Shown here in pieces: positions 491 to 50,988 of a stretch of DNA of 64,000 nucleotides. Position 1 is the first letter of the stretch. Every line of letters starts with the position of its first letter. The notes under the pieces are model-generated. The model worked only from the letters and a program-made list of their open reading frames with translations, ran no database searches and was not told the origin of the DNA. The stretch is from contig JASVEC010000020.1 of NCBI GenBank assembly GCA_030770535.1, positions 434,001 to 498,000 of the forward strand. Direction: 5' to 3'. Both the position numbers and the translations under genes were made by a program. Source of the stretch: Batkoa obscura. Taxonomy: Eukaryota.

Positions 491-1276
491 TTAATAATTT
501 TGTTCAATAAAGGACTTGAACATAAATAACTTAGTATAGACCCCTGGGAAATTCTTTTGAGCACATCCATGACCCCATGAAGTAATGCCAACAAGAGTAG
601 TTTTTCCTGCTTCAACTTTGAAGATTGGACCTCCAGAATCACCTTGACAAGCATCTTTAGCTCCTTCTGGATAACCAGCACAGAACATTACTGTATCATT
701 GACTATTTTGTTAACTGATTTATAAGAGTCAACACATTTCTTAGTATCATAAGTAGGCACTTTTAATTCTAGTAAAACATTACTTCCTTTACCACCTGCT
801 GAAGTAGCACCCCAACCAACAGTAACCAATAATTGATTTGTTGATTTAGCAAATGTACCATCATCAATAACAAAAGTATCTTTTTGAGCTAAGCCCCAAG
901 TACCATCAATTTTCCAAATAGCTACATCATTTAAATCAAACTTATTGGCATCATAATCTGGATGAGCTTTACGATCAATCACTTGATATCTCTTACCTTG
1001 TTCTTTATCTTCAGTAAGAGATATATCATGACGATGGAAACTGGCACTCCAATTCTTGGTATCATAAACAGTACAGTGAGCAGCGGTGATGATCAAATTG
1101 TTTTTGTAAGCCATTCCACCACATAAATGACGTTTTAAGAAATCTAAACTTAACATCCATGGATATTTAAATTTAGGTGATACTTCATATCCTCCAATAA
1201 TTCTTGCAGGTGGTAGTACATCGGCTGCTTGAGATAAAGTGACTAATGCTGAGAGAGCTACTAATTTCAAATTCAT
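491..1276 (-). CDS. Secreted trypsin-like serine protease (S1A), copy 1
   Basis: Intronless 261 aa ORF with signal peptide, PPAR/IIGG activation site, TAAHC, NDVAI, and KDACQGDSGGP (S1-pocket Asp indicates trypsin specificity). Confidence 0.97.
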   Translation of the reverse strand: MNLKLVALSALVTLSQAADVLPPARIIGGYEVSPKFKYPWMLSLDFLKRHLCGGMAYKNNLIITAAHCTVYDTKNWSASFHRHDISLTEDKEQGKRYQVIDRKAHPDYDANKFDLNDVAIWKIDGTWGLAQKDTFVIDDGTFAKSTNQLLVTVGWGATSAGGKGSNVLLELKVPTYDTKKCVDSYKSVNKIVNDTVMFCAGYPEGAKDACQGDSGGPIFKVEAGKTTLVGITSWGHGCAQKNFPGVYTKLFMFKSFIEQNY

Positions 1277-1313
1277 AATTGATTTTTTTCATTAATTTTG
1301 AAGCTCTTGCTTT

Positions 1314-1406
1314 GTATTTATACTTTTCAAATGTACTGATTGTATTATTTAATGTTGAAATCACGTTTTTAATTATTCTTAATTCGAGCATTGAGTACAA
1401 TGGTTC
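1314..1406 (-). promoter_or_regulatory. TATA box plus conserved upstream block of the trypsin genes
   Basis: TATAAATA on the minus strand ~40-70 bp upstream of each trypsin ATG, plus a block ttattctt(a/g)attc(g/a)ag...aat(g/t)gttc conserved at ~1373, ~3669 and ~6347. Confidence 0.5.
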
Positions 1407-2756
1407 GCTTTTATTTTGGATTGTCATGAATTGTGAGAATGTGGAAATTAATTTTATGCAAATTACTACAAAATTTAATAATTTTATTATTTACTATATA
1501 TAATATACACATTTATCAAAACTTAGAAATAAAAATAATAGTTCTGTTTAAGATACATATCTCTTCTGAATAAGGATGAATTTTAAGAGACCTATTTTAG
1601 CGTAAAGTTAGATTTATTTACTTTTAAAGTATCTTTACTATAGCCTTTACTATAATACTATTGAGTGTCACCCTACAAATAACAAATAGCTTTTTCTACT
1701 TAAAAGGGTAATCGCTTAATCTTTATATTAATAAATTAATTCTGATAACTAAACTAGTGGCTTATAAGGCAAAACATTGCGTTAGGTACTATTCCTATCA
1801 TTTATATAGAATTCAATCTTTATTTCTATACATCTGTATAAAATTTCAAAAACATAATCAGGTTTATAAAGATTGTTTTTAATTTCAACTACTTTGTAGT
1901 TGCTTTTTTAGTTTTACTTGCCAAATAGTTATAAAAGTTTTTAGAAAGACAGAGCATATATCAAAACCGCCTTGAATTGTTAATTCTTTATGTATCTTTT
2001 TTATAACCTAATTTCATAGAATTCATAAATTGAACCCATAATATTATACTATTTTTTACGTTTTAACAAAATGTAAAAAACTTAATGTGATCATAGTTTT
2101 TTTAAGAATGCTATAAATTTTTTGAATTTTAAACTACCTAAAAATGATCAAAACGAAAATAAGATAGGATTTTAATACAATTTGAATTTAGACAAATTAG
2201 CTGTAATTTACTTTCAAATAGTAAAAGGTTAGCTTTATCCTGTATGAAATTTTTATTTTTTTACAAAAAGTTATTCTTTTATCTCAGAAACTATATGTAT
2301 CCCATTAAGTTGTATTATTTGATTCTTTATGCTCTGTCAGAATATGGGCTCAAGCCTTGTGTTTAAATTTAGAAATTTACTTTATGTCTAGTCATATTAT
2401 TATGTTATGCTTGTATCATTAAAGACACATCTTAAAAAGTAAAATTCCAAGAACTGATTATAGATAATGAGTCTTAATACATATTCTTCGAGAACAACTT
2501 TATTGTTAGGATTAAATTAATTAGGGTTATACAGTCTTACTGGTAAATGCTATTGGCTTATACTAACCTTTTACCTGTATTTTAAAACATATCTATATTT
2601 AAATTAGTAAATTAATTTAGTTAACATAAAACACTTAAAGAAATAGACTGAACAGTTTGATACTTAAAATGATAATTCGTTATTAACTCCAATGTAAACT
2701 GGAATAGATATTATAATACTAATTTTAATATCAATTACAAATATTAACTAAAAAGC

Positions 2757-3542
2757 TTAAAACTTTTGGTCAATAAAAGATTTAAACATAAATAACTTAG
2801 TATAGACCCCTGGGAAATTCTTTTGAGCACATCCATGACCCCATGAAGTAATGCCAACAAGAGTAGTTTTTCCTGCTTCAACTTTGAAGATTGGACCTCC
2901 AGAATCACCTTGACAAGCATCTTTAGCTCCTTCTGGATAACCAGCACAGAACATTACTGTATCATTGACTATTTTGTTAACTGATTTATAAGAGTCAACA
3001 CATTTCTTAGTATCATAAGTAGGCACTTTTAATTCTAGTAAAACATTACTTCCTTTACCACCTGCTGAAGTAGCACCCCAACCAATAGTAACCAATAATT
3101 GATTTGTTGATTTAGCAAATTTGCCATCATCAATAACAAAAGTATCTTTTTGAGCTAAGCCCCAAGTACCATCAATTTTCCAAATAGCTACATCATTTAA
3201 ATCAAACTTATTGGCATCATATTTTGGGTGGGCTTTACGAGCAATTACTTTGTATCTTTTACCTTGTTCTTTATCTTCAGTAAGAGATATATCATGACGA
3301 TGGAAACTGGCACTCCAATTGTTGGTTTCATAGATAGTACAATGAGCAGCAGTGATGATCAAATTGTTTTTGTAAGCCATTCCACCACATAAATGACGTT
3401 TTAAGAAATCTAAACTTAACATCCATGGATATTTAAATTTAGGTGATACTTCATATCCTCCAACAATTCTTGCAGGTGGTAGTACATCGGCTGCTTGAGA
3501 TAAAGTGACTAATGCTGAGAGAGCTATTAATTTCAGATTCAT
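2757..3542 (-). CDS. Secreted trypsin-like serine protease, copy 2
   Basis: 261 aa, IVGG, catalytic triad motifs intact, near-identical to copy 1. Confidence 0.97.
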   Translation of the reverse strand: MNLKLIALSALVTLSQAADVLPPARIVGGYEVSPKFKYPWMLSLDFLKRHLCGGMAYKNNLIITAAHCTIYETNNWSASFHRHDISLTEDKEQGKRYKVIARKAHPKYDANKFDLNDVAIWKIDGTWGLAQKDTFVIDDGKFAKSTNQLLVTIGWGATSAGGKGSNVLLELKVPTYDTKKCVDSYKSVNKIVNDTVMFCAGYPEGAKDACQGDSGGPIFKVEAGKTTLVGITSWGHGCAQKNFPGVYTKLFMFKSFIDQKF

Positions 3543-5455
3543 GTTGATATATATTAATTTATACTAATTTTTCTTAATTTTGTTTAATTAATTTTTGGGT
3601 TCTTCCTCTGTATTTATAGTTTCAGGTGGCTTTTTCTTGTACTACTCAATGTCGAAATCATGCTTTAATTATTCTTAATTCAAGCATTGGGTATAATGGT
3701 TCTCTTTGGGTTCGATTTATCCCTACTTAAAACGGTAACTGCTTAATCCTATATTCTAAGAAATAAATTGAAAGCCAAATTAGTCGGCTATAGTACAATA
3801 CACCCCCTTAATAGTTATACTTGTCATTTATATCAAATCAACCTTTGAATTATTATAGCGGATCAGTGTGCCAATTTTTTAATAATATTCCTTTCTTACC
3901 CAATAGAAATTAATATAAACAATTGCTAATTTTTTAAGTTAATACCTTTAACTATAAGAACTATAAGCAAAAAATTAAAGTATAAACTATAATACCAAAC
4001 ATTAAATATTGTCTTATTACATGATTAAAGTTGATGAAAAGATTGGAAATCTAAATTCATAATTAATATTATTCTTGGCCTAATCCCAATCTTAACTTCA
4101 TTGTTAGCCTTGGTGCGACTCTAGCAGTAATAATAACCCTAGCATTAATACTTGCGTTGGTTTTATATACATTATAGTCTTTTAACATAAGGTTATTTTT
4201 TGATGTACAAGGATAATTGAGTAAATCGTTGACCTTCTGATCTATTGTCAAAAGCAAATTTTATTGTAAAGTATTATTATAAAATTATCAAAGGTTAATT
4301 AGCTCTTGAAGGTTACTTTTGATTATAACTATAAGCTAGTCTAAGGCGTTATGTTTACTTGTAAGTGGCTATAAAATTGCAAAAAAAGAGAGTATAAAAA
4401 ACTAAACTTAGTAGTAAAATTTGATGTACCTTATTCATAGCTTATTTTTATTAAAATCCATGTTTAAATTCATACTATTAACTTTCTTTGTAGCACTTCG
4501 ACAAATGTAAGAAATTGAATGTGAGCAGTGTTTTTATGTTTAAGAGCTTTATTAATAATTTTTAAAGCTTATACTACTTAAAAAGTAGATAAAGTACTAA
4601 AACAAAAAGGGCATTTATATATTATTTAGATCACAGAAGATTGGGCTCTGGCTAACTTTTAATAGCAAAAGGTTTCACTTTAATTTAGTTTAAACCTTCA
4701 TTCAATAGTAATAATAAAATTTATATTTTATAAACCAACTAGGATCCAACAACCAGACTACTGATAGTTTGCGTGTGTCCAGTCTCTTCCACTGTTGGGT
4801 GGCGTTATATAAATTAGAGTTCGAGTCTATGGAATTTAACCTACCTAAGTCGAAGTCAGGTAGGTAAAACTAAATCGACCAATTTTCCGGTTCTCTTTTA
4901 ATTCCTTTCATATCTCGATAAACCCCACTTCACTACTCAATCAGGCTTTCTATACTTTTGCTCATCTTTAGCAATAAATCACTAGGGATTCTAACTCCAA
5001 GATTCAAAAATTAACTGGAATCCCATTTTTAGGACTTAAATTTTAGAATTTTTATTTGTTAAAATCCCAAAAGAGTTTAAAATGGTGACTCAAACCCTGT
5101 GTTTAAATTTAGAAAGTTACTTCATGTCTTACCATCAACTATTGTATTATATTTGCATCATTAAACTCTAATTTTAAAACGAAGAGTAAAATATTTGACT
5201 ATAAACAATCGATCATTTTATAGAACCTTTTCTAATACCAATATTATCAGTTTTAATCCAAACAATTAAGTCTGTATTAAAATATACAAAAACTCATTTT
5301 ATTCTGGTTATATGTGATCAATTTCGTAATGTTACATAAAGATAAAAATTAGATAAATACAATAAATTCTAACAATCATTTAATAATAGTTTTAATTTAA
5401 ACTGCAATAGTTGTTTACTAAATTTGATGCTAATTACAAGTATTAACTAAGAAGT

Positions 5456-6241
5456 TTAAAACTTATCAATAAAAGATTTAAACTTAAACAATTTAACATA
5501 AACCCCTGGGAAATTCTTTTGAGCACATCCATGACCCCATGAAGTAATGCCAACAAGAGTAGTTTTTCCTGCTTCAACTTTGAAGATTGGACCTCCAGAA
5601 TCACCTTGACAAGCATCTTTAGCTCCTTCTGGATAACCAGCACAGAACATTACTGTATCATTGACTATTTTGTTAACTGATTTATAAGAGTCAACACATT
5701 TCTTAGTATCATAAGTAGGCACTTTTAATTCCATTAATAAATTACTTCCTCTTGCGCCTGGTGATGTAGCACCCCAACCAACAGTAACCAATAATTGATT
5801 TGTTGATTGAGCGAATTTTCCATCATCAAAAACAAACGTGTCTTTTTGGCTTAAGCCCCAAGTGCCTTCGACTTTCCAAATAGATACATCATTTAAATCG
5901 AACTTGTTACCATCGTAATTCGGGTGCGATTTACGAGAAATCACTTTGTATCTTTTACCCTGTTCTTTGCCTTCAGTAAGAGATAAATCATGACGATGAA
6001 AGCTAGCACTCCAATTCTTGATTTCATAAATATCACAGTGAGCAGCAGTGATGATCAAATTGTTTTTGTAAGCCATTCCACCACATAAATGACGTTTTAA
6101 GAAATCTAAACTTAACATCCATGGATATTTAAATTTAGGTGATACTTCATATCCTCCAACAATTCTTGCAGGTGGTAGTACATCGGCTGCTTGAGATAAA
6201 GTGACTAATGCTGAGAGAGCTACCAATTTCAAATTCATCAT
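5456..6241 (-). CDS. Secreted trypsin-like serine protease, copy 3
   Basis: IVGG, TAAHC and GDSGGP intact; start at 6241 or 6238. Confidence 0.97.
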   Translation of the reverse strand: MMNLKLVALSALVTLSQAADVLPPARIVGGYEVSPKFKYPWMLSLDFLKRHLCGGMAYKNNLIITAAHCDIYEIKNWSASFHRHDLSLTEGKEQGKRYKVISRKSHPNYDGNKFDLNDVSIWKVEGTWGLSQKDTFVFDDGKFAQSTNQLLVTVGWGATSPGARGSNLLMELKVPTYDTKKCVDSYKSVNKIVNDTVMFCAGYPEGAKDACQGDSGGPIFKVEAGKTTLVGITSWGHGCAQKNFPGVYVKLFKFKSFIDKF

Positions 6242-7859
6242 TAATTTTATTATTTAATTTTTGTTAATTCTTAAGTTCTTGCACCGTATTTATAGTTTTC
6301 AAATCCTATGATTATATTGTTTGATTTCAGGGTCACGTTGTTTTAGTTATTCTTGATTCGAGTACTTAATATAATTGTTCACTTCATTTATCATATTTTT
6401 CTCTTTGCTTAATCTTTTTATTAACAGATTGTAAATTGTTAATTTACCAAAATCATGCGGTGGGAAGTGCTTTTTTACATATAAGTTACCTTATTCCCTA
6501 TATCTATTTTAACATTTAAAAATATATTTTTTAATTGTGTTAGCCAATCAATCAACCTCCCGGTACCCAATTTCCAGTTTTAACAAGGAATCGTTAAGTT
6601 TAAATATATATTTAATAATATTATATTAATAATAAACTAAGTTTATTTATAGTTTATTACTTAAAACAATATAATATAAGAATATTTTGATGAACAAAAA
6701 TAAATATCTGGCGAAGTTTATATCGTTATAGTTATTCGAACAATAAAATTGTTAATTTTAAATATTTAATCTGATTATCATGTTAATAGTTAGCATAAAA
6801 TAAAGTATTAAATGGTAAAACAAAACACTATAATTATTTTTTAAGCATGCTACAATACAGTTACAAATAGAACATTAAAACCTTTGTTCCTATCAAAAGC
6901 TATGATGAATAGCTAAAAAGTTTAGTTATTAAGCGTAGCTTAATAATTTTGCTTCTAAGTATACCTGGATTAACAAAAGCATTATTTGCTTTATGTTCTG
7001 ACATAGTTAAATATTAAAACCTAGAAACAACTTTGATTTGGCTTGATTTGGCTTTTTGGTTAATATTTTGATCTTAATTACACATTACTGTAGTTTCTAT
7101 ATATTTAAATTATGGCTAAAAGTTTGTTATGATTATAAATTATAAAGTACCAGTGTTTTCCAAAAGATTTATAACATAAATTCAAAATTTTGACTTTGAA
7201 TTTACTCTTGATTAACACTCAAATATGATGTTTATAAGAGTAAAAATACAAACTAATATTGACTTTCGTAAGCTAATGTACAAAAAATAGTTATTATATA
7301 TCAATTTATAATGCTTCAATAATCCTAAATGCCATTAAAAGTAGACTTTTTTGCACTAACGTGCCTGTCCCAGACTGTGACTTCATTAAAATTAACAAAG
7401 TCTTAATAAAAAGACATCTTTTGTAGCCACAAATCTAACAATAGCATGCTTTCTAAAAAATCCTTTTTGTATTGTCTCTAAAGCATCAAAACCTTGTACT
7501 TTCTTTATCCGATATATAAAACACCTAGGGCCTTATGATCTCTCAAGGTTTAAAAAGCCCACTAACTATGACTTTAAAACAGTTATTACTACATAATGTT
7601 AACGGAACAATGCTTCCTGCTTAAGCCTTAAAATTAAAATCTTTCTTAGTTAACTATTTTGATTTTTATCAGGTTTAATATGGCTAATAGCTTTGAACTC
7701 AGGGATTTAGGGAAGGATATGATAAAGAAGTACTGAATTATCTTGAAGACAAGAATAAAATCGATCTATTCACAAGCTGTAAAGAATAGAGTTAAGTGCT
7801 AATAACGATAATACGCGAGGATGTATCTCCGGGCCAATGTTACAAAGAAAGGAATGTAT

Positions 7860-8550: not shown

Positions 8551-8648
8551 AGGGATGTTTTTTTGGGTTCATTACTTTTTCCATTTTTTAAGCGCTATTT
8601 GAGTGGAAAAATTGTTAGTAAAATTCTTAAACACAAAAATACATCTCC
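8551..8648 (+). mobile_element. MITE family A copy abutting the 2.3-kb transposon
   Basis: agggatgttttttt...acatctcc; flanks ATAC/ATAT. Confidence 0.9.
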
Positions 8649-9964
8649 ATATGGGGTTGTCTGAATTAGTTTCATTATTTTATCCAATTTTTGAAAAATT
8701 TTGTATTTTAAAAACTTCGCTTAAAATTCTATAAAATCACATCTTTTATTAAAACAAAAGTACCCAGACATAGTTCTAAATCATTCTATTATAGCTCATA
8801 CTGTAAGTTAGTTGAATTTCTACTAGATCTTAAATACATGTTCTTATAAAACTTTATTGAGAAATATTTATTATCAACTGCTTTATAACCAACATTGTAG
8901 ATTTGTTATCAAATAAATAAACTATTTTAATGTTATGATTACATTATCAATATATTTCCAAGTTAATAAATAGCTGCATGGGAGGGAGTGATTAGCCCCA
9001 AAACTATAATTAACCATCCCTATATAGTACAAGTAATAATAGTTTTTACATATTATTACAGTTACTTGTTCTTTGACTATTTATTAACTTAGCTATCAAT
9101 AACTTAAGTAATCTTAACATTTAACAATCTATTTCTATCATTCAACAAACTACTTACTTGCTTAGTAAATATCGAAATTTTTAAATTCTCTGTTACCTTC
9201 GTAAGGTAAGCTGGGATCGATCTTTTAATTTTTCTGTTTTCTATAGACTCTATAACTTTAATTGGAACTATATCGCTTTTTTTTTGATGTATCAGATACT
9301 GGATAACAATGTAGTTTATTGTTATGTTTAATAAAGTGTAAATACTTTTTAATGCCCTGCATCTCTATTATTCTTTTTGTATTTTTGTTTCTTTTATACT
9401 TTTTAAATAGAAGCTCTGTAGAGATCAAATTGATTAAACAATCTCCTGCATATGCTGAATCATGATTCAATATTTCAGATAAATAATCAAAGTAAACTTT
9501 GCCTATTGTTTTATCATCTTTTAAATATAATACACCAAAGCCTAATACTGATATAGCTTGTTTATTATAATGATCTAGATTTATTGAATCTGGTCTTGTC
9601 CCTATTTCCATATTTTGTTTAAAATCTAAAATCATTATACAACTTTTTTTATTTAATTTTTTAATAGTTTCATTAAATGTGTTTTTTTGAGTATCAACAC
9701 AGAATTTATGTAATTTGTATAATTTTTCTTCTTCGTTGAAAATTTCTTCTATCTCTGTTTTGTTTTTTGCTGTATTTATTTTATTTTCAAATAACTTTTT
9801 TCTAACTGTATACTGAGCACATATATTACATAGATCCGTTTTTCTTGCTGGATTTTTGAAATTAGTTGGTATATATTTAAAGAATGTTGACCTGGCTACT
9901 GCTTTATCTCTTAGATCATTCAAATATTTACTATATATCATTCTTCTACTTTTATTTAATATAT

Positions 9965-10062
9965 GAGAGTGTTTTTTTTGACTTCATTATTTTTTCCATT
10001 TTCAAACGCTATTTAAACAGAAAAATTGTCAGTAAAATTCTTAAACACAAAAATACATCCCC
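9965..10062 (+). mobile_element. MITE family A copy nested in the transposase
   Basis: gagagtgttttttttgacttc...catcccc; ATAT TSD on both sides. Confidence 0.92.
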
Positions 10063-10253
10063 ATATATATATTATCTGATGAATATTTACTATCATTATT
10101 TTTTTTATTAAATCTTGATGAAATAGTTGAATCATTTAGTAAATATTGTATAATAGTTTCAATTTGGTCATCTTTAATTTTTTTGTATTTTTAATAATAG
10201 GTTGTAATCTTGATATTTTACTACTATTATTACTTATTTTTGAATAATCATAT

Positions 10254-10352
10254 GGGGATGTATTTTCGTGTTTAAGAATTTTACTAACAAATTTTCCGCT
10301 CAAATAGCGCTTAAAAAATGGAAGAAATAATGAAGTTAAAAAAAACACTCCC
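10254..10352 (-). mobile_element. MITE family A copy nested in the transposase
   Basis: ggggatgtattttcg...aaaacactccc; ATAT TSD on both sides. Confidence 0.92.
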
Positions 10353-11189
10353 ATATTGATTTCTATTTATATTAAACTCAAAACTCTTACATTCATCAAA
10401 AGAATATACTGAAGCTGTAGTTGATAATAACGCTACTTGCTGATTTTTATTTCCTATTTCCCTTAAAGCACTAATTTATACATTACTTAAGTTTATTATT
10501 ATCGATAGTAAACTTTGATAATATATCTTTTCTTTGTTTTGTTTTATTATAAAATTCCATAAACCTTGGGTTGTTATAAGTAGCTCTTAAAATTGACGTA
10601 AATGGATTATAATGTTTATATTGTGTACTCCTCCCTATTGTATTAAAATTTTCAAAAATTCCATTTCGAAGTTTAGTTATGAAAGTTTGCATTTTATTTT
10701 TATTTCAACAAAAAATAAAGTCAAATAAGTGTATTTATATAATTATATAATCATATAGTTATATATTATATATTTGTTAAATATCTAACAGAACTAACAC
10801 AAAATATATAGTTAGGAAAATTAGCTATTTAAGAAAAGGAAACAATTAAAATAAGTTTTAAATAAAGAGATTTAATTTTAGGCTTTTTAGATTTAACCGT
10901 TATATTGGACACAAACTTGAAATTTTAAATTTGGATTAATTTCTAAGTAGATTCTGAAACCAATTAGGACAGCCCCATATCTGAAATTAAAAGCATCTAT
11001 TTTATAATACTATAGAGCTGTAACCATTTACACTTTTATTTATAAAAATTTCAATCACTTTTACACCTTAGCCCAGCCTTAAATTTTAAACTTAAAATTT
11101 TATGTGTTTATTAATTAAAAGTTATATGAAATTATTATTTTTACTATTGTTTTATCACCAAGACTTTACTATTTCAACCTTTGGTATAA

Positions 11190-21204: not shown

Positions 21205-21724
21205 GGGGACTTTTTAAACTTCTTAGCCCAACCTTTTATATTTTCGGTTGTCTTTTAAACTAATTTTCAAAGTACTATTAGTCATTTTAGAGAGGAAAGT
21301 TAAAAGCAATATTTTTTGCTAGCATTATTCTAATATTGGTCAAAAAAATGTCAAACATCCCCTAATCATAACGGTTTTAAAATAAGGTATTTTTAAATTC
21401 CAAAAAATATGCAATTTTTGCAGTTTCGTTTCTGTTTTAAATTCCAAATTTTAATCAACTTTCAATTTTATAATCGCTCTTAAAACTAACTGATAAGATA
21501 AAATGGGAGATATTGAAAGCAATGTGGACTTGGGGGATATTGGCATCACTTTAGTTTGGTGTTTCAGCTTTAGTCCATATTGTTAAAAATCAATAAAATA
21601 AAATATTTTTTGAAGTTTTCAAAGTAATTAAATTTTAAAAAAAATTATTTTAATTACTTGGAATAACCGATGGCTAAGGCTAAAATTTAAAATTTTGATG
21701 TTTAATTAATAACTAAAAGTCCCC
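21205..21724. mobile_element. Possible second non-autonomous TIR element (Tourist/Harbinger-like)
   Basis: GGGGACTTTT...AAAAGTCCCC ends with TTA on both sides; non-coding; single copy in the window. Confidence 0.35.
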
Positions 21725-31592: not shown

Positions 31593-31690
31593 GGGGCTGT
31601 TTTTTTTAGTTTCATTATTTTTCCATTTTTTAAGCGCTATTTATGTGGAAAAATTGTCAGTAAAATTCTTAAATACAAAAATACATCCCC
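31593..31690 (+). mobile_element. MITE family A copy
   Basis: ggggctg...catcccc; ATCT TSD on both sides. Confidence 0.93.
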
Positions 31691-33130: not shown

Positions 33131-34560
33131 CACTAGATCGAACTGTAGTGTAAAAATTAAAAAATAAAAGATAAAAAGAGATATGAGTTTTTGTTTATAC
33201 TAGTACCAGTTGTTCATGGCTAAGTAATAGATTAACTTACATAAACTCAGATTAGATAACATTGCATCATAGTATTCTATGGTGTATTTTTTTATTATGG
33301 AGTCATGGTTAATCAATGTATAAAGTGGATTTGAAGTAGAATTATGTTTTAATTTTTCAATTTGATTTAGGCTTAAGTTTATAAATATTTATATAAATGT
33401 TTTTGTTACATGTCTTTCAAAAAGGTGTATTTTGTTTTCCTTATACAATATAAATTTTAACAAACTCAATCAAATCATGATAGAAAACATTTCCATGTAC
33501 TGATCAAAAATTAAAATTAAAACTGAAAAACTAGATTTTGGGCTAAGGTATATTTTAAACCAAAAAATAGGCATTTAAAATAATTTATTTTTCCCACTAA
33601 AAAATCCACCAAAATGATAAGTTCTGATATTATATTAGTTATTTTCCCCTTACCAGATTTAGTACTAAAACGTTCAATTTGATCGTCTCAATACATTTCA
33701 GTAACAAATAAAGGGTATCACAGTGGATTCAACCCTATCGCCGCTACCTACTCTGTACTCACTCTAGCTATATCTTTAACACTCAAGCCAAAACCAAGGA
33801 CCGCCTAGCCACGTAGCTATTTTCACTACGATTATAATAGCTACAAGGTGGTCGTCATGTAGCCATGGATAAGGGAATAAGCAATTGTAGCTTAATATAC
33901 ATGATACCTCAAAGATAGCTCACTAAATATTGTTTCTATTTTTTTATATAAAATAGAAATCTTACTAGATTTAATAGTTATGGGTATTAAGGATTTAAGA
34001 TTGTTTGAAGAGTTGCATTGTGTCATCTTTTTATAGATTATTTATTATATTTTAACATACAGTCATACTATCAAAATATCCTCAGGGGTGAGTAATTGTA
34101 ATACTAATGAGAATTTACATGAAAATAATTTAATTTTTTACCTATAAAAGCTTCTACTGTCTTAACTAATAATATAAAAATATTCATAAATGTTTAGGAT
34201 TTTTTTATTAAGTATCTTTAGTCACTATTTGCAGCAAAAAGTATATCTCATACTTAAATTTTGATTTATGAGAAATGTCAATTGCTGTGTACTACTTTAA
34301 CTTCATGATATGAACTATTGCTTGGTATTTGAGTTACTTTTATGAATTCCAAAACTTAATCAATTTGATTATCCTTTATGCAGCATAAAATGTGGAAAAT
34401 TAGTTATCTATTGCAGAAGTGAAGAATAATGTTTCAAAATTTTAGCCAAACCTTACTTGACTTTTAACTAGTTAATTGATATTTTCAAACTTAAATTAAA
34501 AATTTAAATCACTTAAGAATTAATCTTTTGTTAATTTAATAAAACTAATATAACTAAACA

Positions 34561-34995
34561 ATGCCAATTAATCGATCTAGAGAAGTTGAACCTATAAATA
34601 CACCTCAACCACCGTCATCAAAGAAAAAGAAGATCACTATTCAACAAGCTCGCTCCCGTATAAAATTATTAAAAACTTATGCTCAATGGTTGGATGCTAT
34701 CCCCGGTTTACCTATCAAAATTGGACTTGATGGGCTTATCGGATTAATCCCTGTTATCGGAGATGGTGCAACCTCTATCTTATCTATAATATTAATCATC
34801 TTAGCTAAAGATTTAAATTTACCAAAACATGTTTATGGGAAAATGATAGGGAATATAGTAATTGATACAACGGTGGGATCCATACCATTCTTAGGAGACG
34901 TTTTTGATGTATTATGGAGAGCAAATTTAAAGAATGTAGATTTGATGGAAAAGTGGGTGGAAGAGAATATACACTTGTTTGAACAGGAAGAGTAA
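34561..34995 (+). CDS. DUF4112-family membrane protein, copy 1
   Basis: WLD..IGLDGLIGLIPVIGD..KMIGNIVIDTTVGSIPFLGDVFDVLWRANLKN. Confidence 0.88.
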   Translation: MPINRSREVEPINTPQPPSSKKKKITIQQARSRIKLLKTYAQWLDAIPGLPIKIGLDGLIGLIPVIGDGATSILSIILIILAKDLNLPKHVYGKMIGNIVIDTTVGSIPFLGDVFDVLWRANLKNVDLMEKWVEENIHLFEQEE

Positions 34996-50028: not shown

Positions 50029-50988
50029 TTTAAAAAGTTAAAAAATTAAGTTAAAAAAATTAAGTTTTTAGTTTAAGTTTCTTAAGCGAATCGAATCATT
50101 TGTTAAATTTGAAGAATTTGCTTAGATAAAAGAAACTTGAGAATAATCTTTTAGTGTTCAAAATCATTATATGACATTGTTCAATAATTCCTTTTGCATT
50201 TTGGTATATAAAAGTAATTGTTGAACAATGTTGAAGTTTTTTAGGGGAATTTTGTACCGATTATTTTCATATATTTTGGTAAATTTAAGTCTTTAATTAA
50301 GAAAATTAATATTATAAATAAAATATAAGTTGTAATATCTCCAATAACGGGGATTAATTCGATAAATCTATCAAGTCCAATTTTGATGAGTAAATCGGAG
50401 ATAGCATGCAACGATTGAGCTTGTTTTTAATGATTTTATACAGAAGAGAGATTGTTAGATGGTGGTCTCCTTTTCCTTTAATGGTAATAATTGATGTATG
50501 TTTATAATGCAGCTTCGTTAGGTCTATTAATTCGAATTGTTTAGTTAATATTGGCTTTATTGAATCAACAAAAGATTAAAGTTATTGAGTGGTTTAAATT
50601 TAAATTTCAAGTTTGAGGTATTACTAGAGTTAATTCAAAACTAAGACTTAGTTAAGATTTTAGTACTTTGTTTTTTACTTCTGTAATAGATGACTAATTT
50701 TTCACGTTTTATGCTGTTTAGAAAATAGTTAAAACTTGAAATTTTCAAAGGAATCTTAATAAAAACATTGCTTTGATCATGTAGTTAAAGAACTACAACA
50801 GTGTTAATATTTTTACAAAAGCAAAGCTTATTTTACACAAGATAAATTTCTGCTGCAATTGTTAATAAAAATTTCTTTGGCAAAGCTCAAATATAGTTTG
50901 GCTATGATATTATGCTGTTCACTATAGTTCAGCAAATATTTATGCAACTTAAAAATATTAAATACTGATTAAGGCAGATATAGTATAT

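Follow-up and report, generated by a model that had tools for sequence, protein, structure and literature searches.

The window, by which we mean the whole 64-kb stretch of DNA analysed, is eukaryotic and AT-rich (GC mostly 0.22-0.30), with short, split frames. In its left part it carries a TIR transposon of 2324 bp, which starts with GGGG and ends with CCCC. Inspection of the sequence agreed exactly with the initial annotation in this length, in the ATAT TSD and in the imperfect 22-bp TIRs, which match each other at 18 of 22 positions. Three features had escaped that annotation: two MITEs within the transposase gene, a third MITE adjoining the left end, and an internal deletion (Table 1). BLAST found this MITE, approximately 98 bp long, in 20 copies in the window, one of them cut by the window start. 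To the left of the element, three tandem genes for secreted trypsin-like proteases, 87-94% alike in DNA, occupy 491-6253.

Table 1. Features of the element and of the MITEs discussed in the text
Feature	Positions	Strand	Evidence or remark
Defective Sola2-type (DFa/PPa-like) TIR transposon	8653..10976	gene on minus strand	TIR and TSD, depth step, protein homology
Left TSD, ATAT	8649..8652	.	doubles as right flank of the adjoining MITE
Left TIR, 22 bp, GGGG start	8653..8674	+	18/22 against right TIR
Right TIR, 22 bp	10955..10976	-	
Right TSD, ATAT	10977..10980	.	
Transposase pseudogene	9104..10692	-	tblastn with sister proteins; indels in other copies; frames
Retained core	9399..9956	-	D-x-C-x-x-C, first catalytic Asp motif (DFKQN), NHDS
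10-bp microhomology at deletion junction	9398..9407	.	loose contig ends on both sides; alignment
MITE inside gene	9965..10062	+	ATAT on both sides; joint 9960-10063 skips 102 bases in other copies
Second MITE inside gene	10254..10352	-	ATAT on both sides; joint 10248-10352 skips 103 bases in other copies
MITE adjoining left end	8551..8648	+	flanks ATAC and ATAT
MITE cited in the initial annotation	31593..31690	+	ATCT TSD; closest of 20 to the element left end

The TIRs and the 4-bp TSD were observed directly, and both are of the kind found in Sola2 elements, namely an AT-rich TSD of 4 bp (ATAT on both sides) and short, often imperfect TIRs. Sola termini follow a G-R-G rule, and the element has GGG at both termini. 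In piggyBac, Kolobok and Sola3 the TSD is TTAA; the ATAT TSD does not fit these groups, and none of 13 MITE TSDs is TTAA. In run X1, summed contig depth was approximately 267,000-512,000 in the interior of the element versus 445-1,294 in its flanks and reached 5.5 million in the MITE bin. This sum is not a copy number and is taken as a sign of many copies and of the boundaries given in Table 1; in all four runs (X1-X4) it rose several hundred-fold over the element and dropped in the bin after 10981. The initial annotation had asked for other copies with differing flanks, and these exist: the left end including ATAT is attached to differing sequence in X1 (18 contigs) and in X2 (23 contigs), as judged by loose ends before 8649 (agreement 0.49 in X1 and 0.47 in X2). 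Contigs of other copies also carry private deletions at single-copy depth, such as 8887-9278 and 8983-9469, which show that the family is decaying.

The transposase gene of this copy is a pseudogene, delimited by an ATG aligned to residue 1 of the sister protein P0003 and by an inferred stop. The four motifs named in the initial annotation, KTDLCNIC, ILDFKQN, SVLGF and NHDS, are all present in a single minus-strand frame of 241 aa (9258-9983). Besides the two nested MITEs, whose sites are found in MITE-free form in other copies of the element, the gene has suffered one in-frame deletion, and its frame changes because of indels near 9277, 10177 and 10474-10486. Alignment A1 shows that the window frame and its homologues share D-x-C-x-x-C, DFKQN and NHDS, after which the frame continues without W-x-D and HGK-x-x-x-D, so that of the catalytic Asp residues only the first is retained. 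Sister copies keep the first and the second; P0001 and P0003 reach the second motif, W-x-D-T-G-N-H-F-R, and none of the six sister proteins read (P0001-P0005 and P0041) has all three motifs or represents an intact family copy. Contigs diverge from this copy before 9398 (four in X4) and behind 9407 (16 in X1, eight in X2 and one in X8), and the X8 contig extends for approximately 300 letters into the deleted part, which means that the lost stretch measures at least about 300 bp. From these sequences we infer that catalytic motifs 2 and 3 were lost by a deletion between two 10-bp direct repeats. This copy is not autonomous, as had been claimed, but a dead relic, since its gene is frameshifted, holds two MITEs and has lost motifs 2 and 3.

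The X8 contig comes from a run with another organism code. It covers 8648-9407 at low depth before continuing into the deleted part, and is 98% like the element, with 15 differences in 760 positions (approximately 2%), and near the family majority. Horizontal transfer into the X8 organism was considered and rejected, since a low-depth, majority-like contig fits trace DNA of a high-copy repeat, and the contig is likely such trace DNA. In X2, loose ends at 9449-9454 indicate that other copies of the element bear a MITE there, making the element a repeated MITE target.

Closest to the element frame, at 84-93% identity, are five proteins that are annotated as hypothetical and carry the label Neoconidiobolus thromboides; the host is probably this insect-associated, entomophthoralean fungus or a near relative of it. 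A phmmer search at E<=0.001 gave 389 homologues and listed the best 150 of them, and 1294 candidates included no longer homologue. One of the homologues, P0014, is labelled Thalictrum thalictroides and stands on a 1.9-kb contig; it may come from a contaminated plant assembly. A profile search returned 14 proteins, all unnamed, and no named Sola protein among them. The classification was obtained through P0047, which is DFA_08389 of Cavenderia fasciculata: it matches the element frame at E 4.2e-15 in the library search and at E 4e-22 in pairwise comparison (33% identity over 169 aa), and by eye it is almost identical to the sequence given for DFa-2 in a published alignment of 'Sola2-Tpases' (PMC3627910). 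The element frame thus has significant similarity to a transposase already classified as Sola2. In an unrooted FastTree of 79 of 168 proteins without outgroup, DFa-2 sits among the homologues, and the window protein groups with unnamed proteins and one Smittium protein.

The catalytic machinery is recognizable at the level of the clade. All three motifs, with spacings near 82 and 41, are present in 67 of 159 stored proteins, a count that includes one mis-ordered protein and six near-duplicates, and they share a single open frame in 15 of 32 metagenome loci. A structural model was made of the relative P0011 (pLDDT 87.6); its best structural match is Mos1 (Foldseek E 1.2e-5; VIA Z 10.8, rmsd 3.0, 163 aligned), and other DDE enzymes were also matched. 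Together these place a DDD triad in an RNase H-type transposase fold predicted for the clade. The transposase similarity called for in the initial annotation is provided by the homology with DFa-2, and the RNase H fold by the model of a relative. The likeness to the catalytic domain of Mos1 concerns structure only: identity is approximately 11%, and mariner elements have a TA TSD, in contrast to the 4 bp of this element.

The nearest described relatives are DFa-1/2/3 of Cavenderia/Dictyostelium fasciculatum and PPa-1/4/5 of Polysphondylium pallidum, whose transposases are homologous to that of the element (PMC3627910). The likeness extends to the DFK-x-N, W-x-D, HGK-x-x-x-D-x-x-F and D-x-C-x-x-C motifs, to AT-rich 4-bp TSDs (AWWT; ATAT, AAAT, ATTT) and to short TIRs of 12-21 bp, partly imperfect (PMC3627910). 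However, the family described here is approximately 2.4 kb long, has a single gene and shows no trace of a Fanzor passenger, has a probable fungal host, and occurs alongside a MITE of approximately 98 bp; its ends are GGGG, whereas those of DFa/PPa are GAA, GAG or GTT and do not all obey G-R-G (PMC3627910). Sola1 elements and their MITEs also have AWWT TSDs, G-starting TIRs and an autonomous partner for the MITE (PMC3845634); they were compared with the element by description only, and the TSD alone cannot separate Sola1 from Sola2. Ginger2 has 4-bp AT-rich TSDs as well (PMC3845634), a length that fits the element, but encodes an rve-type integrase (PMC5751038). No rve domain was matched in the seven window frames or in 60 homologues, and Ginger2 is unlikely because the element directly matches a Sola2-type transposase. 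Repbase assigns superfamily membership in Sola by PSI-BLAST convergence with Repbase Sola proteins (PMC4455052).

The element belongs to a new fungal family of a known superfamily, for which the Sola2 label depends on the filing of DFa-2 in one paper. The initial annotation had seen a Sola-like, multi-copy TIR transposon with a 4-bp AT-rich TSD, which is supported by the depth step, the TSD and the homology with DFa-2. It had also called the element unclassified, perhaps an undescribed lineage and a new system, while naming a close match to a described family as what would remove its novelty; the published DFa-2 is such a match, and these descriptions do not survive, as the element belongs to a described group.

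It is conceivable, although we would not favour it, that the DFKEN / HGK-x-x-x-D-x-x-F clade including DFa-2 forms a separate Sola subgroup rather than belonging to Sola2 proper. Animal Sola2 transposases (the Hydra, Aedes, sea urchin and Bombyx rows) share with the clade the three-Asp layout, HD before the second Asp, HGK before the third and a 4-bp TSD, but they carry DF[AS]ENY, VCVC-x-x-H and D-G-x-GG (PMC3627910), which are nearly or wholly missing in the clade. Consistent motif differences from 12 animal Sola2 rows were found: CVC-x-x-H, an animal Sola2 hallmark, occurs in one of 159 clade proteins, and the third Asp is followed by x-x-F in 92 of 94 and by x-x-GG in none of 94. The list of homologues is almost purely of the DFKEN clade, and Pfam DUF7869 was matched in only eight of 60 homologues, always weakly and below the cut-off; Atlas indicated DUF7869 clusters, at 0.88 for the window frame and 0.96 for part of P0008. 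Of 27 related loci examined, six have inverted ends that start with GGG and lie between A..T flanks, and in two of the six the flanks are identical on both sides; these ends were chosen by eye with no null, the contig ends of locus L001 mirror each other, and the count is only suggestive. The animal-type signatures are absent from DFa-2 and PPa-1 as well. On the other side, Bao and Jurka placed both in Sola2, aligning them over all three catalytic motifs (PMC3627910); the tree made here has no outgroup. A wider proposal, equally tentative, would treat the DFKEN clade as a Sola subgroup still without a name, represented so far by only a few dictyostelid elements filed under Sola2 yet widespread among environmental eukaryotes and such early-diverging fungi as Neoconidiobolus and Smittium. 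It would be characterized by GGG ends and ATAT-type targets and overlooked by Sola2 profiles; in the present fungus, much of the 'Unknown' repeat content would consist of it and its MITE, and an intact driver may persist. Apparently complete GGG-ended relatives with all three motifs lie at L001:45-2858 (573 codons), L015:103-3138 (698 codons) and L021:82-2245 (525 codons).

The relation of the MITE to the element was examined at their ends. A perfect 4-bp TSD flanks 13 of the 20 MITEs (ten ATAT and one each of ATCT, ATTT and ATTA). The match of 23 of 28 positions between the left end of the element and the MITE at 31593, given in the initial annotation, is correct, yet it is the best of 20 copies, the other 19 matching at 7-20 of 28 positions ungapped and at 13-22 gapped. 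The MITE consensus matches the two element ends at 31/46 and 24/36 positions (approximately 67%). With GGGG excluded, random window segments scored as well in 0 of 5000 and 14 of 5000 cases, and the ends of the MITE do resemble those of the element above chance; swapped-end controls were nearly as good (29/47 and 22/38). Under the Repbase rule, a non-autonomous derivative has the same TSD length and at most one mismatch in terminal bases 1-11 (PMC4455052). The TSD length is the same here, and at each end the MITE consensus mismatches the element at three of the 11 terminal bases; the rule is strict, as the element's own two ends differ at three of 11.

We consider it unlikely that deletion within the element family gave rise directly to the MITE, the first half of the 'parent or partner' offered in the initial annotation. 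The two have in common GGGG ends, a preference for ATAT, subterminal blocks at both ends and the above-chance end scores. However, an end identity of just approximately 67% contrasts with the divergence of approximately 2% between this element copy and the majority-like X8 contig, and the element contains nothing that significantly matches the MITE at its positions 40-98 (best E 0.07). None of the 15 joints listed connects the left end directly to the right end, 1048 further joints being outside that list, and the true parent could be a sister family with GGGGATGT ends. The half of the original proposal that fares better is partnership, which is plausible; to judge from these sequence comparisons, the MITE most likely originated in another family of this clade, either a sister or an older one, and would have been moved in trans. 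That the element copy is autonomous, or the start of an undescribed superfamily, is highly improbable: none of the seven window frames has a Pfam match above the cut-off and the sister proteins are annotated as hypothetical, but the relic state of the gene refutes the former and the direct match to a published Sola2-type transposase argues against the latter. A Pfam match to RnlA_toxin in a 49-aa fragment (E 0.0025; 18.5 of 27 bits) was treated as noise.

With high confidence, the element at this locus belongs to a high-copy cut-and-paste family with a transposase homologous to that of DFa-2, and is a non-autonomous copy that carries a deletion and is interrupted by MITEs; the neighbouring MITEs were likely mobilised by the same or a sister transposase. 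By analogy with DDE/D transposases, an intact copy would encode a protein of approximately 550 aa whose catalytic triad is D-(~82)-D-(~41)-D; this protein would bind the GGGG-ended TIRs, excise the element and reinsert it at ATAT-like sites, with a stagger of 4 nt. Of this course of events, the TSDs, the differing flanks and the empty MITE sites are seen directly. The present copy would then have lost its catalytic core between the two 10-bp repeats and gathered two MITE insertions, and any further movement would be possible only in trans. The MITEs inside the gene are identical to the MITE consensus at 85 of 99 and 89 of 99 positions, whereas their host copy differs from the X8 contig by only approximately 2%; this contrast could stem from MITE subfamilies or from faster decay. 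C-to-T and G-to-A changes reach 16-23% in all four dinucleotide contexts in the MITE copies, versus 5% for A/T transitions, and often strike the terminal GGGG. Such an excess may come from decay of the methylation or RIP type, or simply from AT bias.

A fungal survey whose set included two Conidiobolus genomes reported Sola2 to be nearly lacking in fungi, with a single case in Aspergillus flavus, and suggested that Sola1-3 had been acquired horizontally (PMC5751038). In N. thromboides, 13.5% of the genome was reported as repeats, including 'Unknown' elements, and the text available mentions neither Sola nor MITEs (PMC10515909). Searches with Sola2, Sola4, DUF7869, PF25273, Conidiobolus and genera of Zoopagomycota found no published description of the family; their coverage lay outside subscription journals and Repbase Reports. 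The high-copy family described here and the homologues labelled Smittium suggest that this Sola2-type group has been overlooked in fungi rather than being absent from them, and an abundant unclassified repeat pair of an early-diverging fungus gains a name. Intact compact relatives such as L001, 2.8 kb long, would permit a biochemical test of a Sola-type transposase.

Some further repeats were noted in the window. MITEs form close pairs at 7.9-8.1 kb, 22.5-22.7 kb and 60.5-60.7 kb. The segments 34381-34830 and 50271-50716 are a 77% inverted duplicate overlapping an ORF at 34558, likely a paralogue. A 158-bp stretch at 21205-21362 runs from GGGG to CCCC with an inverted match of 15/22 and flanks ATTA and TAAT without duplication, and is possibly another small element.
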